Below are positions 1,911 through 35,484 of a stretch of 64,000 nucleotides of DNA, one piece after another. How positions within the stretch are numbered: position 1 is the first letter of the stretch; every line of letters begins with the position of its first letter. The translations under genes and the position numbers were made by a program. This DNA is from Candidatus Bathyarchaeota archaeon. Its GTDB lineage: Archaea > Thermoproteota > CALKCG01 > B24 > DRYS01. The notes beneath the pieces were generated by a model. The model was not told the origin of the DNA. It did no database searches and saw only the letters and a program-made list of their open reading frames with translations. The stretch lies in the NCBI GenBank assembly GCA_018396535.1, contig JAGTQC010000005.1, forward strand, positions 32,001-96,000, in the 5' to 3' direction.

Positions 1911-2849
1911 ATGGGGATTAGAGAATCGTTTAGAGGTCTAGATATCCTAACTCTACAAGAGCTTAGTAGTGAGCAGATAGCATTTCTACTAGGCTTAGCT
2001 ATGGATATGAAGGAGAGAGTAGATCGTTATGAAGGTTTACTCAAAGGTAAGGTTTTAGCTATGATATTCGAGAAGCCTTCAACTAGGACTAGGGTTTCGT
2101 TCGAGGTCGCAATGTATAAGCTCGGAGGCTATGCGTTGAATCTGAGATGGGATGAGCTTCAACTTAGTCGTGGAGAGCCTATCAAGGATACTGCCAGAGT
2201 TTTAAGTAGGTATGTAGATGCTATCATGGCTAGAGTCTATAAGCATAGTGATCTAGAGGAGCTTGCTAAGTATGCTTCGATACCAGTTATAAACGGTTTA
2301 AGTGACTTATGGCATCCATGTCAGATTCTGGCAGATCTCCTAACTATAAAGGAGGTTAAGGGTGGGTTTAGAGGTGTGAAGCTAGCGTATATCGGTGATG
2401 GTAATAATGTATGTAATACACTTTTAGTGGGTTGTAGTAAGGTCGGTGTAGATGTGAGTGTAGCCTGTCCTAGAGGATATGAGCCTAGCCCTAGAGCTTT
2501 AGAATGGGCTTATGAGAATTCACGTATAAGTGGATCTAAGGTGGAGGTTCTTGAGAATCCTGTAGAAGCTGTTAAGAATGCAGACGTAGTGTATACTGAT
2601 GTATTTATCTCCATGGGGTTTGAGTCTGAAGCTGAAGAAAGGAGGAGGATCTTCCTACCTAGGTATAGAGTTGATGCTAAGCTTATGAGTTATGCTAAAC
2701 CGGATGCGGTATTTATGCATTGTCTACCAGCTCATAGAGATGAAGAAGTCGATGAGGAGGTATTGGAAGGGAAGAGCTCCGTCGTCTGGCTTCAAGCTGA
2801 GAATAGGTTATATGCTCAGATGGCTCTCCTATACCTTATACTGGGCTGA
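1911..2849 (+). CDS. argF: Ornithine carbamoyltransferase
   Basis: FEKPSTRTR, HPCQ, SMG and HCLP motifs. Confidence 0.97.
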   Translation: MGIRESFRGLDILTLQELSSEQIAFLLGLAMDMKERVDRYEGLLKGKVLAMIFEKPSTRTRVSFEVAMYKLGGYALNLRWDELQLSRGEPIKDTARVLSRYVDAIMARVYKHSDLEELAKYASIPVINGLSDLWHPCQILADLLTIKEVKGGFRGVKLAYIGDGNNVCNTLLVGCSKVGVDVSVACPRGYEPSPRALEWAYENSRISGSKVEVLENPVEAVKNADVVYTDVFISMGFESEAEERRRIFLPRYRVDAKLMSYAKPDAVFMHCLPAHRDEEVDEEVLEGKSSVVWLQAENRLYAQMALLYLILG

Positions 2850-31267: not shown

Positions 31268-32015
31268 ACGAGGCTTAGAGTTTAATGATCCCTTAGTTAT
31301 AGAGGGCTTCCCTGGTCTAGGATACGTAGGTAGGATAACGGTTGATTACATCGTAGAGAAGCTTAACGCTGTAGAATTTGCTAGGCTTTACACACCATAT
31401 TTTCCACAGCATGTTATAGTAGATGAGCATGGTGAAGTTAGACTTCTTAAAGCATCGTTCTACTACTGGTCGGAGCCAGATAGTAGACGAAGCATCATAC
31501 TAGTAGTGGGTGATAGTCAAGCTCAAACAATCGAAGGTCAATATAGGCTTGCATCTACGATACTAGGGTTTACACGTAAGCTAGGAGCCAGAAGAGTAGT
31601 ATGTATAGGGGGGTATGAAGCATATGTAAGCGATAAACCTAGACTATACGTAGCGGGTACAGATTTAGATATTATTCGAGAAGCCACATCTATCGGTGTA
31701 GAGGTTGGACGTATAGGTAGCCCTATAGTAGGCTTAGCAGGTGTGATACTAGGCATAGCTAAATTCTACGATATGAAGGGCATAGCGATTCTGGTGGAGA
31801 CACCTGGATATTATCCTGATATAGTTGCTGCTAAGGAAGCAATAATTTTTGTATCTGAGTATATAGGTGTGAATATAGATGTAGGCGATCTAGAAAAATA
31901 CGCTGATAAATTTTCTCAAACTTTACGAAGTTTAGAAGAAGTAGCTGAAGAATTGAAGCATTTATCCGAGTCAGTTAGATTAGCCGATAGAGGAAGGTTG
32001 ACGTATATAAGCTAG
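31239..32015 (+). CDS. PAC2-family proteasome assembly chaperone
   Basis: EGFPGLGYVG, GDSQ, ETPG motifs and C-terminal HbYX-like YIS. Confidence 0.9.
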   Translation: MRKPVVVWVKRGLEFNDPLVIEGFPGLGYVGRITVDYIVEKLNAVEFARLYTPYFPQHVIVDEHGEVRLLKASFYYWSEPDSRRSIILVVGDSQAQTIEGQYRLASTILGFTRKLGARRVVCIGGYEAYVSDKPRLYVAGTDLDIIREATSIGVEVGRIGSPIVGLAGVILGIAKFYDMKGIAILVETPGYYPDIVAAKEAIIFVSEYIGVNIDVGDLEKYADKFSQTLRSLEEVAEELKHLSESVRLADRGRLTYIS

Positions 32016-32698
32016 GGCTCTATCACCGAGCCTATATCGTATCCCTCGAGAGCTTTCACTATATTCTCTGGAGTTAAACCTGACACAACTATAAATCTGA
32101 ATGGTGTTTCTGATAAAAGTCGACATGCTTCTGGATCTATTACTTGGTTTATACCTGCTTTATACCTCACATCCGCGAATATCTTTTTCAATTCCTCGAT
32201 TTTAATCTTAGAAAGTTTTTTCGCATCTCTATATATGTTCGGATCTTTATCGTATATGCCGTCAACCTTCGATGCTTTAACTATGACCTCGGCCTTCAAC
32301 CTTCTAGCTAATAGGATAGCTACAGAGTCTGTAGTCATACCAGGGGTTAATCCACCCATAACAACAAGTAAACCATTATCTTGCATAGCTTTAGCTTCAT
32401 CGATACTTCTTGCTATAACACCCTTCGTTAGATCTTTCAGACACTTAGAGAGTAGTAGAGCTACTATGCGTGAAGCCTCTATCGCTATCTCATCTTTATC
32501 TTCCTCTGCTAATCCTAATTTTTCAGCTATACTTATTAAACTCCGTGCAAACTCTCCTCCACCAACTACTACTGCCAACCTGTACTCCATTCCTGCAAGT
32601 CTTCTTATAACAGATGAATACGCATATAACACGCCTGGATCTATAGGTGACGCTATGATAGAACCGCCTATCCTAATTACAGCACTTAGATCCCTCAA
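32012..32698 (-). CDS. pyrH: UMP kinase
   Basis: IGGS, VVGGG, PGMTTD and VDGIYDKDP motifs of archaeal PyrH. Confidence 0.92.
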   Translation of the reverse strand: MRDLSAVIRIGGSIIASPIDPGVLYAYSSVIRRLAGMEYRLAVVVGGGEFARSLISIAEKLGLAEEDKDEIAIEASRIVALLLSKCLKDLTKGVIARSIDEAKAMQDNGLLVVMGGLTPGMTTDSVAILLARRLKAEVIVKASKVDGIYDKDPNIYRDAKKLSKIKIEELKKIFADVRYKAGINQVIDPEACRLLSETPFRFIVVSGLTPENIVKALEGYDIGSVIEP

Positions 32699-32773
32699 CG
32701 CTCGGATAACTTTAAAAGCTGTTTTCAGGTATAAACATGACGGAAGGATAGGAAGTATAAGTGGGGATATTAT

Positions 32774-35008
32774 TTGTCCTCTAGTAGGCTTCCTAAAAAG
32801 CTCAGTACTAGAATTCTAGAAGCTTTAGCTTCTAGCATTAGGATGGAGATACTTAGATTACTACACGAAGAAGGCCCTCTTTCATATAGTGAACTTATGG
32901 ATAGACTAAATCTGGATCCTGTTAAGCATGCAGGTAGGTTCGCCTATCATCTCAAGAAGATTCAATCTGCTAATCTCATAACGCTATCAAAGGAGGGTAG
33001 GAAGTATCAGCTTACAGATTTGGGATGGAAAATATATGAGCTTACACGTGAAATAGAGGAGCATGCCCTTAGAGCTGGTACAAGACTTCTAGTAAGAACA
33101 TCGCGTACAACCATAGAGGAGTTCGATCGTAACCGCATAGTAGAATCGCTTGTTAGAGAAGCTCAAATACCTCAGGAGATAGCTGAAAGAATAGCTAGAA
33201 AAGCTGAGGAAAGACTCCTCGATCTGAGGGTAAAATATCTTACAGCTCCCTTGATCAGAGAATTCGTAAACGCTATACTCATAGAAGAAGGTATGGAGGA
33301 GTATAGGCATAAGCTTACTAGGCTAGGTTTACCAGTCTATGATGTTAAGAAGTCTTTTCAAGATATAGGTGCTAGAGGCGGTATTGCTAAAGACGTTAAA
33401 GATCGTGCGGGTGAGGCTGTACTTAGAGAGTACGTCCTACTTGACATACTACCTAGAAGAGTCGCAGACTCCCACCTATCTGGTTATATAGATATAAGAA
33501 AACCTGGGTCATGGATACTCCATCCAGATGTGATAATACATGATATAGAAGAGATCCTAGCTAGACATGCTTCAATGTTAACATTACCATCAGAAGAGAG
33601 TAGGCTAAAGCTCTACATAGCATATCTATCAAAGTTCATAAGAGATGTATGCTATGAGATACATGAAGAACAGGTAGTAGAATACTTCAACGTCTATCTA
33701 GCTCCATACGTAACTGGGGTTAGAGATATCGAAATAGAAGACGAACTCATATCTTTTCTTATATACCTCTCTGATCTGAAACCCACGGTATCACTAGGAC
33801 TTGAACTAGGGATACCGAGTTTCATGGAAGAAAAGAGGGCTCTTGGAAAGAAGATCGGATATGGCGATCTATACGATGAAGCGTATCGTTTACTTAGAAG
33901 TCTACTTAGATGTTATGAGAGGCTAATGAGCTTTAATAGATTTCGGAGATGCCTACCGCGTTTAATAGTTAAGCTCAGAGGAGGGGATATAGATGAAGAT
34001 ATACTGCTTCATATCCACAGAATCATATCCTTAGGTGGGGAAGTAACGTTTTCTAATTTAGCTAAGACTAATGGAATAACATCATCTGAGGGTATATGGA
34101 TTGAAGCGGATAAAGGTTTACCAGAATATGCTTTACTAAGGAGTCTTTGGATCGGTGGTGTGTCTGTGAATATACCTAGAGCTTCATATGAATCTCATGG
34201 AAGAGAGAATATATTCGCTCGTAGATTAGAAAGGATATGTAGAGATGCCGTAGACTCTCTATTATTCAGGTATAGTGCTGTATCATCTAATATATCCTCT
34301 AATCTTCTCCCCACTCTATTTGGTGGAGTTAGCCCATACTCTAGTATCAAAAATTGTAAATACGGTCTAAACTTAGTAGGTCTCTTAGAAGCTGCTATGC
34401 TTTTCACAGATTCAGAAAACTTTATCGAAGACGATGTATTGGATTATACGTGGAAGATCATAGACTATTTACGTGAGATAGTGAGAAGTATAGAACAGGA
34501 AACAAGAATTAAGATAACCCTATCTAGTATAGCCGATATCGATGCTTCAACTAGGCTTGCCAATATGGATCAGTTATACTATGGTAAAGCTAAAGAGTAT
34601 AAACACTTATATAGACCGTTCTATGCCTCTGGCTCTCTCATACCTATGGATATAGATGTATCGACTATAAATAGAATAAGAATAGAAGCTGAATTTCATA
34701 GAAAGATTGATGGAGCATTAGCTGTAATACCGTTGAGTGAAGATGATATTGAGGATGTAGAAGCCATGAAAGACTTAACCATAGAAGCGTATGAAAACTA
34801 TGATCTAAGATGGTATAGCTATGGGTTTAAATTCACATATTGCACCTTATGCCGTAGACATTTCAACGGCTTTATCGAAGTATGTCCAGAGTGTAGATCA
34901 TCTAGAGATCTTGTAAGATATGTCAAGATAGGTGCATCGTATATGAGTGAGTATGTTTTACCAGATGGTGTAAGAAATGCTTTATTGAAGTCTAACAGCT
35001 CTCATTAA
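32774..35008 (+). CDS. wHTH + ATP-cone + class III ribonucleotide reductase (NrdD)-like fusion, apparently catalytically inactive
   Basis: ArsR-type wHTH at residues ~12-90, ATP cone (VRTS..IEEFDR..YLTAPLIRE), NrdD-like barrel, C-terminal CxxC..CxxC; glycyl-radical motif absent. Confidence 0.8.
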   Translation: MSSSRLPKKLSTRILEALASSIRMEILRLLHEEGPLSYSELMDRLNLDPVKHAGRFAYHLKKIQSANLITLSKEGRKYQLTDLGWKIYELTREIEEHALRAGTRLLVRTSRTTIEEFDRNRIVESLVREAQIPQEIAERIARKAEERLLDLRVKYLTAPLIREFVNAILIEEGMEEYRHKLTRLGLPVYDVKKSFQDIGARGGIAKDVKDRAGEAVLREYVLLDILPRRVADSHLSGYIDIRKPGSWILHPDVIIHDIEEILARHASMLTLPSEESRLKLYIAYLSKFIRDVCYEIHEEQVVEYFNVYLAPYVTGVRDIEIEDELISFLIYLSDLKPTVSLGLELGIPSFMEEKRALGKKIGYGDLYDEAYRLLRSLLRCYERLMSFNRFRRCLPRLIVKLRGGDIDEDILLHIHRIISLGGEVTFSNLAKTNGITSSEGIWIEADKGLPEYALLRSLWIGGVSVNIPRASYESHGRENIFARRLERICRDAVDSLLFRYSAVSSNISSNLLPTLFGGVSPYSSIKNCKYGLNLVGLLEAAMLFTDSENFIEDDVLDYTWKIIDYLREIVRSIEQETRIKITLSSIADIDASTRLANMDQLYYGKAKEYKHLYRPFYASGSLIPMDIDVSTINRIRIEAEFHRKIDGALAVIPLSEDDIEDVEAMKDLTIEAYENYDLRWYSYGFKFTYCTLCRRHFNGFIEVCPECRSSRDLVRYVKIGASYMSEYVLPDGVRNALLKSNSSH

Positions 35009-35484
35009 ATTAGGTTGAGTAGAGCATCGTTTCTATCCATAATCCTGCGGCAGTAGTGGCACTGTATCAGTAAGGGATCCTTAGATATGACGTGAAATAC
35101 GGGTTTGATAGGTTCATGGCTATTCGATATGCAAGATGGATTACCGCATTTAACAAGACCTACTAAGATATCAGGTATCTTAACTTTCATCTTTGATAAA
35201 ACCTCGTAATCTCTTATTATATTTATCGTAGCATTAGGAGCTATCAAAGCTATTTTATGAACCTCGCTTTCTACTAGTTCCTTCCCTTCGATCTTAACGA
35301 TATCCTTTAACCCAAGCTTATGACTAGGTACATTCATTACGACGCTTATCGTTAATCCTTCCTTACCGGTTAAACCTAGTATCCTAAGTACATCTAAAGC
35401 ATAGCCTGCGGTTATGTGGTCTATAACTGTTCCATCCTTAATCTTTTGCACTCTTAACTCCCTTCGTTCATCCAATGTCTTCAC
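35005..35484 (-). CDS. pyrI: Aspartate carbamoyltransferase regulatory chain
   Basis: IKDGTVIDHI, KDIVKIE, CGNPSCIS and CHYC motifs. Confidence 0.97.
   Translation of the reverse strand: MKTLDERRELRVQKIKDGTVIDHITAGYALDVLRILGLTGKEGLTISVVMNVPSHKLGLKDIVKIEGKELVESEVHKIALIAPNATINIIRDYEVLSKMKVKIPDILVGLVKCGNPSCISNSHEPIKPVFHVISKDPLLIQCHYCRRIMDRNDALLNLI

Follow-up and report, generated by a model that had tools for sequence, protein, structure and literature searches.

A catalytically dead class III ribonucleotide reductase paralog fused to a winged helix, a candidate regulator of nucleotide-supply genes in archaea

Between pyrH and pyrI in the window, i.e. the whole 64,000-nucleotide stretch of Candidatus Bathyarchaeota DNA analyzed here, lies a gene for a protein of 744 amino acids. 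Sequence comparisons support its identification as a catalytically dead paralog of the class III ribonucleotide reductase (RNR) NrdD that is fused to a DNA-binding domain. This pseudo-enzyme probably forms a homodimer and regulates the transcription of nucleotide-supply genes in a manner resembling the bacterial repressor NrdR, a reading to which a probability of about 0.6 is given. The coordinates of the gene, its domains and its surroundings are collected in Table 1.

Table 1. Features of the dead NrdD paralog gene and its surroundings (positions within the window).
Feature	Position	Strand	Evidence or remark
Whole gene, 744 aa: winged helix-turn-helix (wHTH), cone-like domain, dead NrdD barrel, Zn ribbon	32774..35008	+	
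pyrH (archaeal UMP kinase), divergent neighbor	32012..32698	-	TIGR02076 193 bits, cut-off 158
pyrI (aspartate carbamoyltransferase regulatory chain), convergent, 4-bp overlap	35005..35484	-	TIGR00240 189 bits
75-bp divergent promoter region, common to dead paralog gene and pyrH	32699..32773	.	
Palindromic TATA AACTTTAAAAGCT, generic	32708-32720		within 75-bp promoter region
Block AGGTATAAACATGACGGAAG, kept in nearest relative	32727-32746		within 75-bp promoter region
GGGG before TTG start	32763-32766		within 75-bp promoter region
ArsR-type wHTH, residues 10-101 (a1-a2-a3-a4-b-b-a5)	32801..33076	+	profiles, ArsR match, AF2 secondary structure
Divergent ATP-cone-like domain, residues 104-181	33083..33316	+	PF03477 27.0 bits, GA 25.8
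NrdD-like ten-stranded barrel, residues 210-714, catalytically dead	33401..34915	+	PF13597 120 bits
Degraded substrate-triphosphate motif I-D-I-R-K-P, residues 239-244 (canonical HxHD)	33488..33505	+	
Val253 in conserved beta-strand Cys column (T. maritima C125)	33530..33532	+	
Glu439 in finger-loop thiyl-radical Cys column	34088..34090	+	
Zn ribbon C690, C693, C704, C707	34841..34894	+	invariant in family
Former glycyl-radical loop YVKIGASY, residues 716-723	34919..34942	+	Ala721 (34934-34936) in Gly column

The open reading frame starts with TTG. As the first-pass annotation had described, pyrH is divergent across a 75-bp gap and pyrI overlaps the 3' end of the gene; its statement that the window contains no NrdG also held, the sole radical-SAM match there reaching 38 bits where the cut-off is 131.

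The body of the protein has the barrel fold of NrdD. The Pfam NRDD match spans residues 210-714, the AF2 model of the full-length protein has a pLDDT of 88.9, and the top Foldseek matches were all class III RNRs (9dca, E 2.6e-23; 8p2s, TM 0.71; 4coj, TM 0.72; and 1h7a). With the NrdD equivalog TIGR02487 the dead paralog scored 137 bits, compared to a cut-off of 326 and to 467 bits for the real NrdD of the same genome. Residue columns were compared in an alignment of 152 sequences, 25 of them real NrdDs and 127 members of the dead-paralog family. The column of the radical glycine, occupied here by Ala721, holds Gly in 24 of the 25 real NrdDs and in 11% of the family, and the Tyr directly after it is retained by 2% of the family. 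At the thiyl-radical position, Cys was found in 24/25 real NrdDs and in about 2% of the family; for the beta-strand Cys these numbers were 24/25 and 0/127. DIRKP..PDV (residues 240-244 and 251-253) aligns with Y112-L-H114-D115-R116 ... C125 of T. maritima NrdD; the HxHD motif and the residue roles in that enzyme were taken from the literature (PMC4493059). The NxN flap is deleted in all 127 family members, the dead paralog included, and the PAE helix cap is lost in this protein and across the family. All these elements (radical Gly, both Cys, NxN flap, HxHD and PAE cap) are retained in 24 of the 25 real NrdDs. The Zn ribbon, C690-x-x-C693 ... C704-x-x-C707, is present. In Aigarchaeota and Nitrososphaerota the barrel is eroded and the Zn ribbon lost, and there the HTH and the cone are the most conserved parts. 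From the letters alone it had been proposed that the protein keeps a full NrdD-like body and an intact C-terminal Zn site, that YVKIGASY carries Ala at the radical Gly, that HIHDL..NC has become DIRKP..PDV and that the thiyl Cys is gone, and the fold searches and the alignment bear this out in every part.

The dead paralog shares common descent, the barrel fold and the C-terminal Zn ribbon with the class III NrdDs (T4, 1h7a; T. maritima, 4coj; P. copri, 8p23; S. thermophilus, 9dca; PF13597 and TIGR02487). Unlike these, it lacks the catalytic elements, carries an added wHTH, stays under the equivalog cut-off and also occurs in aerobes without NrdG-dependent chemistry. Separate working reductases were identified in the source genome: a canonical NrdD (650 bits, loop ARVVGYY) and a class II RNR with its own ATP-cone (91 bits); NrdG is encoded there as well (159 bits). 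Therefore, the dead paralog is not needed as a reductase. The genes nrdD, nrdJ and nrdG are located on contigs other than that of the dead paralog. No NrdR could be identified in this genome, in which the best TIGR00244 match, located elsewhere than the dead paralog, had 26.5 bits compared to a cut-off of 124.65.

The ArsR-like wHTH that had been noticed at the N-terminus was recovered by Pfam DUF7347 (44 bits) and HTH_20 (35.3 bits, threshold 27) at residues 14-89; HTH_5, with 19 bits, stayed under its threshold of 22. Among solved structures the best sequence match of the N-terminus was the ArsR protein 6j05 (E 5e-6), and the AF2 model shows the a1-a2-a3-a4-b-b-a5 topology of ArsR. With the NCBIfam ArsR/SmtB metalloregulator subfamily NF033788 the domain scored 32.9 bits, below the cut-off of 55. 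In the recognition helix, G54, F56, Y58, H59 and L60 are invariant or nearly so across the family. An ArsR-like homodimer was modelled at 0.65, compared to 0.00 for the best control, a result that may stem from similarity to ArsR dimers of solved structure; the calibration mark is one that 20 of 30 true homomers passed, as did 1 of 23 single chains. Contact agreement between the runs was at least 87% and pLDDT at least 88. The modelled interface comprises residues 8-24 and 81-102, and the wHTH is accordingly predicted by the model to dimerise via a1 and a5. The ArsR topology of the first 100 residues is common to the ArsR/SmtB repressors (e.g. 6j05), but the sensor part would here be a 640-residue RNR remnant and not a metal site.

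The domain after the wHTH had been called a well-preserved ATP cone, which was an overstatement. Its Pfam match, at residues 107-177, is marginal, with 27.0 bits against a threshold of 25.8 and against the 91 bits of the class II RNR cone in the same genome, and a sequence search of solved structures with the cone alone found no ATP-cone. The domain reads V107-R108-T109-S110-R111 where canonical cones have V-x-K-R-D-G. The Lys-Arg pair of this hairpin, which we take to bind nucleotide phosphates (K9/R10 in E. coli NrdA), is absent, with T109 and S110 in its place. The fold itself is present: the AF2 model contains a beta-hairpin (strands 106-108 and 114-116) and four helices (119-130, 134-149, 158-171 and 175-181), and the full-length fold matches the cone-bearing NrdD of S. 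thermophilus. R108, S110, E115, F117 and I122 are conserved across the family, and the 'RTS' type of cone is also found as the second cone in the nearest real NrdDs, P0130 and P0142.

In a phylogenetic tree the dead paralogs were monophyletic, lying on one side of a branch opposite the real NrdDs. All 16 genomes of the source's class contained the family, and across the phylum it was present in 262 of the 401 genomes sampled. Grouped at 90% identity, its members make up more than 2800 clusters. No publication on it was found in the literature searched outside subscription journals, and it is apparently a large, undescribed family. As had been expected of annotation pipelines, its members do carry the name 'anaerobic RNR': thousands of database entries are labelled 'anaerobic ribonucleoside-triphosphate reductase', including those from obligate aerobes such as Ca. 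Nitrosotenuis. This label distorts metabolic reconstructions, e.g. of inferred anaerobic capacity.

Gene neighborhoods were counted in the 50 Bathyarchaeia loci whose downstream flank extends over at least 3 kb; these come from related genomes and are not independent samples. In 44 of them a real NrdD, NrdJ or pyrB/pyrI is encoded just downstream of the dead paralog; pyrB or pyrI lies at most four genes downstream in 32, in both orientations, and a real nrdD follows directly in 18. The order dead paralog, glutaredoxin, real nrdD was observed in 14 loci. The divergent pyrH arrangement of the window is shared by 6 of 67 related loci, and the order pyrH - dead gene - pyrI recurs in 6-9 related species. 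A carbamoyltransferase gene is the divergent neighbor in one Nitrososphaerota genome. In five complete genomes of ammonia oxidisers the dead paralog is the only NRDD-family match and no real NrdD is present; in four of these the class II RNR gene follows it directly in the same orientation, and in the fifth it lies near that gene and is divergent from it. At least one related genome has the dead copy only, at E 1e-30 or better. This gene context supports a link between the family and both RNR and pyrimidine genes.

A gene-specific semi-palindrome of 12-18 bp was found at the dead paralog's own promoter in 29/80 species. With up to three mismatches, the 18-mer ACTTTAATTTTTTAAACT had 37 matches in 957 kb, and 29 of these sit 22-60 bp upstream of a dead paralog gene. 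The halves of the element read TTTAA-N4-TTAAA, and one of the loci from genomes with the 18-mer is that of Ca. Bathyarchaeum tardum M17C-01. The 12-mer core of the 18-mer gave 28 matches, of which 19 are upstream of the dead paralog gene and one is unrelated. The spacer after the dead paralog gene contains nine matches, eight of them inverted (before grx-nrdD in seven loci, at a contig end in one) and one forward, before nrdD in locus L044. The exact 18-mer, with C or T at the fourth base, was present as a single copy in each of five genomes; further near-matches in the genomes of five relatives, beside proteasome, peroxidase and adhesin-like genes, were taken as chance. Among species with proteins 35-93% identical, the element forms a conserved island of 19 bp with unconserved flanks. 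In one large clade, the promoters of the dead paralog and of grx-nrdD have the element in common. It fits autoregulation and control of nrdD; because it overlaps a TATA-like sequence, part of its conservation may reflect promoter strength.

The element is missing from the lineage of the window. Neither the 18-mer nor its core is present near any nrd or pyr gene of the source genome, and no operator could be recognised there. When its promoters (dead gene/pyrH, pyrI, pyrB, nrdD, nrdJ and nrdG) were compared pairwise by k-mers, only GTATAAACAT was shared, a TATA-like 10-mer that is reversed upstream of nrdD and has a chance of ∼0.03 for the pair before correction for 15 pairs. In relatives, the conserved element was not found in the spacers between pyrB and pyrI. 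The palindrome CTTTAAAAGC at 32710-32719 was rejected as an operator, since it is present in 14 copies in the source genome and represents a generic promoter word. A tandem TAGGTTTAGA upstream of the source genome's nrdD resembled paired boxes and was dropped because the 10-mer has 63 copies and the genome is full of over-represented 10-mers.

In the mechanism proposed here, a class III RNR paralog has lost its radical chemistry, and an ArsR-type winged helix has taken the place of the N-terminal ATP-cone. The homodimer would bind DNA at short semi-palindromic sites overlapping the TATA region of its own and of RNR promoters, presumably as a repressor. Nucleotide ligands may modulate this binding at the variant cone, at the remains of the dimer-interface specificity site, or at both; at the T. 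maritima specificity-site residues Gln161, Gln210 and Gln218 the MAFFT and HMMER alignments differ by one or two positions. Candidate targets in the lineage of the window would be the dead paralog itself, pyrH, pyrI, nrdD and nrdJ. The first-pass annotation had read the protein as an RNR scaffold repurposed as a nucleotide sensor controlling DNA binding. This is partly supported. The dead NrdD with its DNA-binding domain and the links to RNR and pyr genes stand; the cone without the Lys-Arg pair, the degraded substrate site (HxHD motif, PAE helix cap and NxN flap), the lack of a recognised operator in the window's lineage and a pyrimidine link given by gene order weaken the reading.

In this role the dead paralog would be an archaeal counterpart of NrdR, the RNR-specific repressor of bacteria, which combines a Zn ribbon with an ATP-cone (TIGR00244; PMC9110341, PMC12176259). 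Both would join a DNA-binding domain to an ATP-cone-type module, lie beside RNR genes and be autoregulated, so that by analogy the same job is proposed. NrdR binds paired boxes of RNR promoters in dependence on nucleotides; for the dead paralog, the element conserved in relatives before its own gene and before grx-nrdD is an indirect hint of comparable binding. However, in NrdR, a protein of about 150 aa, a Zn ribbon directly precedes the cone, whereas the dead paralog has a wHTH, about 744 aa and a whole RNR barrel, and its cone, unlike that of NrdR, lacks the Lys-Arg pair. Homology is limited to the cone; the dead paralog would at most work like NrdR and is not a member of its family.

Other readings were weighed against that of an NrdR-like regulator. 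In the lineage of the window the dead paralog might regulate the pyrimidine genes (pyrH, pyrI and ATCase) and not those for RNR, the RNR link being ancestral. The flanking pyrH and pyrI, with nrdD, nrdJ and nrdG on other contigs, the recurrence of this gene order in related species, the pyrB/pyrI genes downstream in 32/50 loci and the divergent carbamoyltransferase gene in Nitrososphaerota all agree with this. We consider it unlikely nevertheless, as pyr promoters share no motif with the dead paralog promoter in the source genome or its relatives, pyrB is 75 kb away in the source genome, and the pyrimidine link is seen in gene order only, where it may go back to synteny that was inherited. Somewhat less likely still is a non-transcriptional role on DNA, e.g. 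as a tether that holds a nucleotide-sensing or protein-recruiting scaffold on the chromosome to supply replication or repair. Selection on a large barrel and a Zn ribbon, far beyond the needs of a simple repressor, and the lack of an operator in the window's lineage are compatible with a tether, but a classical regulator is what one would expect from the gene-specific semi-palindrome that many species have at the promoters of the dead paralog and of nrdD, and it is the barrel and the ribbon that decay in Aigarchaeota and Nitrososphaerota, not the HTH and cone.

NrdD works as a dimer, and a pseudo-enzyme could control the working class III reductase by forming heterodimers with NrdD or by titrating NrdG through the Zn ribbon, with the HTH secondary; the retained ribbon, several positions conserved as in real NrdDs and the real nrdD directly downstream in 18/50 loci could be explained in this way. 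This is very unlikely, given that the five complete ammonia-oxidiser genomes keep the dead paralog without a real NrdD, that at least one related genome has the dead copy only, and that the HTH, along with the cone, is the most conserved part. Least probable of all is a new, non-radical nucleotide activity in the old barrel. The barrel residues N466-x-P468-R469, G536/E539, R594/D599 and Y617 do stay conserved across the family, but all known catalytic and substrate-phosphate elements are gone, the barrel is eroded in several lineages, and the wHTH fusion is kept throughout.

Inactive RNR paralogs with new roles include yeast Rnr4 and murine cytomegalovirus M45. To our knowledge, none of this type carries a DNA-binding domain. 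Like the dead paralog, these proteins are RNR-family members without catalysis that are kept for another purpose; unlike it, they derive from class I subunits and act by protein-protein contacts. M45 has been referred to as an inactive RNR homolog (10.1101/324590).

More tentatively, and doubtful at this breadth, the family may be an archaeal master switch: a dimeric repressor that would read (d)NTP pools via inherited allosteric sites and couple transcription of RNRs of both classes to pyrimidine synthesis (ATCase and UMP kinase) across Bathyarchaeia, Methanomethylicia and ammonia-oxidising archaea. Aerobic ammonia-oxidising archaea are globally abundant. As far as we know, archaea mostly lack NrdR and the control of their RNR genes is largely unknown. 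A conserved and widespread regulator candidate makes this control testable, and bench tests are feasible because some ammonia oxidisers in cultivation and an enriched Bathyarchaeum have orthologs. If true, the family would clearly exemplify how a large allosteric enzyme can be recycled whole into a transcription factor.

The gene between pyrH and pyrI in the window encodes a descendant of the class III ribonucleotide reductase (RNR) NrdD that fails every catalytic membership test, and it is therefore referred to here as dead nrdD. With the NCBIfam NrdD equivalog its product scored 137 bits, below the cut-off of 326. The AlphaFold2 model, for which 48 family members were aligned as input, was confident (pLDDT 88.9, pTM 0.81). 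All of its best fold matches were class III RNRs, and the cone-bearing enzyme of S. thermophilus matched it over the full length. Both flanking genes named in the first-pass annotation were borne out, and the other genes around them have housekeeping functions (aIF2-alpha, proteasome parts, RNase P, SBDS).

Dead nrdD, the domains of its product and the flanking genes (genes in window positions, domains in residues)
Feature	Position	Strand	Remarks
Dead nrdD	32774-35008	+	TTG start, 744 aa
Winged helix	residues 14-89		Pfam: DUF7347 44 bits, HTH_20 35 bits
ATP-cone	residues 107-177		Pfam 27.0 bits, threshold 25.8
NRDD	residues 210-714		Pfam 120 bits
pyrH	32012-32698	-	divergent from dead nrdD, 75-bp gap
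pyrI	35005-35484	-	convergent with dead nrdD, 4-bp overlap at its 3' end

Residues were compared in an alignment of 127 family members bearing the winged helix (wHTH) and 25 sequences classed as real NrdDs; counts among the latter reach 24/25 because one of them is an N-terminally cut family member. The beta-strand Cys (24/25 real NrdDs, 0/127 family members) is replaced by Val253, the finger-loop thiyl Cys (24/25, about 2%) by Glu439 and the radical Gly (24/25, 11%, with the following Tyr in 2%) by Ala721, in agreement with the loss of catalytic parts described in the first-pass annotation. The NxN flap, present in real NrdDs, is deleted in 127/127 family members including the window's protein. 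In T. maritima NrdD the gamma-phosphate of the substrate is bound by the HxHD motif (PMC4493059). D-I-R-K stands at this position in the dead protein, and 2% of the family retain the second His; the phosphate-binding helix likewise has a degraded PAE cap. A few barrel residues are retained (N466-P468-R469, G536/E539, R594/D599, Y617). The Zn site, also described earlier as intact, is complete with C690, C693, C704 and C707; many relatives stop directly after this ribbon or do not carry it. Barrel descent and Zn ribbon are common to the protein and NrdD, whereas the radical Gly, both Cys, the NxN flap and HxHD are lost. It is nearly certain that the protein is a pseudo-enzyme.

A full HMMER scan identified 1475 relatives, with the full architecture in about a hundred 50%-identity representatives. 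The clusters obtained in a word-indexed search number more than 2800 (at 90% identity) and bear the names 'anaerobic ribonucleoside-triphosphate reductase', 'helix-turn-helix domain-containing protein' or 'ArsR family transcriptional regulator'. In a tree calculated from the cone onward, the family occupies one side of a branch and the real NrdDs the other. All 16 genomes of the window's class encode it, as do 262 of the 401 sampled across the phylum; named members are found in Bathyarchaeia, Hecatellales, Conexivisphaerales, Aigarchaeota, Ca. Methanosuratincola and Ca. Nitrosotenuis cloacae. Conservation is highest in the N-terminal 260 residues. No description of the family was found in the full-text literature, the coverage of which excludes most subscription journals.

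The ATP-cone had been called well preserved, which did not hold: it lies barely over the Pfam threshold, and its hairpin reads V107-R108-T109-S110-R111 compared to V-x-K-R-D-G in canonical cones. R108 and S110 are conserved throughout the family, and the cone residues E115, F117, R/K121 and I122 are retained. Sequence searches with the cone alone or with the family profile, whose alignments begin past the cone, matched no solved cone. Since this same 'RTS' cone occurs in the nearest real NrdDs as a second cone, preceded by a canonical one, the wHTH appears from these sequences to have taken the place of the first, canonical cone. Nucleotide sensing is a plausible putative function of the protein.

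Elsewhere, the window's genome (G000) encodes working counterparts: a canonical NrdD, which scored 650 bits and has the tail ARVVGYY, an NrdG scoring over its cut-off and a separate class II RNR, for which a check had been proposed, with an ATP-cone of 91 bits; NrdR was not found in this genome. Of the NrdR model, a 101-aa open frame outside the window (G000:C8:152392-152613, locus L125) covers just the ATP-cone half (26.5 bits, profile positions 47-124); this frame may encode a stand-alone cone protein. When the real NrdD was used as query against the genome of locus L023 (G009), the dead copy was the sole match at E 1e-30 or better (28% identity); either this MAG is incomplete or the regulator was kept without a class III RNR.

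Neighbourhoods were sampled at 80 species-level Bathyarchaeia loci, and the 50 that extend 3 kb or more downstream were used for downstream counts; NrdDs with RxxGY were counted as real. A same-strand gene for a real NrdD follows within two genes in 18/50 loci, the divergent pair pyrB/pyrI, whichever way it is oriented, within four genes in 32/50, and at least one of real NrdD, NrdJ, pyrB and pyrI in 44/50. The order dead gene, glutaredoxin-like gene (grx), real nrdD occurs in 14/80 loci. Other neighbours are conserved less (next cluster 9/80, pyrH 8/80). In the window's lineage the RNR genes are no longer adjacent, and pyrH and pyrI, the sole remaining neighbours among these genes, recur in the same order around the dead gene in the closest relatives. 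The true pyrB (C10:142342-143232) lies 75 kb away, and a second carbamoyltransferase-family gene at window 1941-2843 (+) (G000:C10:33941-34843; ATCase model 158.7 bits, below cut-off) is probably an ornithine carbamoyltransferase. Five Bathyarchaeia species (L031:6557-7858 and four other loci) encode, immediately before the dead gene, a 433-aa protein with the same kind of wHTH (HTH_20, HTH_5, DUF7347), possibly another, shorter relative of the regulator. In the distant lineages of Ca. Nitrosotenuis cloacae (L112) and Ca. Methanosuratincola (L114), the dead gene follows one and the same pair, a thiolase and an OB-fold/zinc-ribbon (ChsH2-like) gene, so that this order is conserved between them.

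A role requiring a real NrdD partner is ruled out by five complete ammonia-oxidiser genomes, since the dead gene is the sole NRDD-family match in each. In four of them the class II RNR gene follows it on the same strand after about 200 bp, and in the fifth the two genes are close together and divergent, which links the family with RNR genes of two classes.

In many Bathyarchaeia relatives the promoter of the dead gene carries a semi-palindromic 18-mer, ACTTTAATTTTTTAAACT, with the core TTTAA-N4-TTAAA. It gave 37 matches (up to 3 mismatches) in 957 kb of loci, 29 of them ahead of the dead gene at a distance of 22-60 bp and always in identical orientation; an exact copy lies upstream of real nrdD in L044, and one with 3 mismatches abuts the pyrI start in L029. 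For the 12-mer core 28 exact matches were reported: 19 precede the dead gene (18 forward, one inverted), the spacer that follows this gene contains 8 inverted copies and, ahead of nrdD in L044, 1 forward copy, and 1 lies elsewhere. Seven inverted cores are located about 65 bp ahead of grx-nrdD and the eighth at a contig end. Across 17 species whose proteins share 35-93% identity (median 67%), the element stands out as a 19-bp island between unconserved flanks, and for a second conserved word, TACAGAWTTTTA, 16/17 matches fall in the spacer that separates the dead gene from grx/nrdD. Each of five genomes has the exact 18-mer (C or T as 4th base) once; near-matches in these genomes adjoin unrelated genes and were rejected. 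The position of the element coincides in part with a TATA-like stretch and fits the spacing of a core promoter, where many archaeal repressors bind. As a sequence feature it is consistent with autoregulation and control of nrdD, as a candidate operator that does not itself identify the binding protein. In the ammonia-oxidiser loci L121-L123 and L112, the region upstream of the dead gene and the spacer towards the class II RNR gene are rich in GATC-containing words (24 in 1342 bp, versus 5.2 per kb in adjoining coding DNA), and CACAAGT is common to both promoters just ahead of the TATA box; this may be an operator in that clade.

The 18-mer and its core are absent near every nrd and pyr gene of the window's genome, and no convincing motif common to the dead-gene promoter and those of its nrdD, nrdJ, nrdG, pyrB and pyrI was found. 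The spacer between pyrH and the dead gene contains a palindromic TATA word of generic type (14 copies in the genome), a block AGGTATAAACATGACGGAAG conserved in the nearest relative and GGGG ahead of the start codon. The real nrdD promoter (C9:135560-135828) has blocks conserved in the genus member L107. Among these blocks are the inverted repeat ACTATG-N5-CATAGT and, directly before the TATA box, the word AACTACAWTTTTCTAGAGTA, which resembles the 18-mer variant ACTACAATTTTTTAAACT of two relatives. Oligonucleotide use in this genome, window included, is extremely skewed: many 10-mers exceed 100 copies in 1.41 Mb (about 3 expected; TATACCTATA 136, GCTATAGCTA 129), and TAGGTTTAGA has 63 copies, mostly within long open frames.

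Two copies of residues 6-104 were folded alongside three controls. The homodimer scored 0.65 and the best control 0.00; the runs agreed in at least 87% of contacts, with pLDDT of at least 88. The calibration mark is reached by 20/30 proteins solved as homomers and 1/23 solved as single chains. Helix 1 (residues 8-24) and helix 5 (81-102) form the modelled interface, as in ArsR/SmtB dimers, and the pass may therefore stem from likeness to solved structures. The modelling supports a predicted homodimerisation of the wHTH region. The best-supported mechanism, with a probability of roughly 0.6, is that the protein acts as a dimer to regulate the transcription of nucleotide-supply genes; it is proposed to work like NrdR without being a member of the NrdR family.
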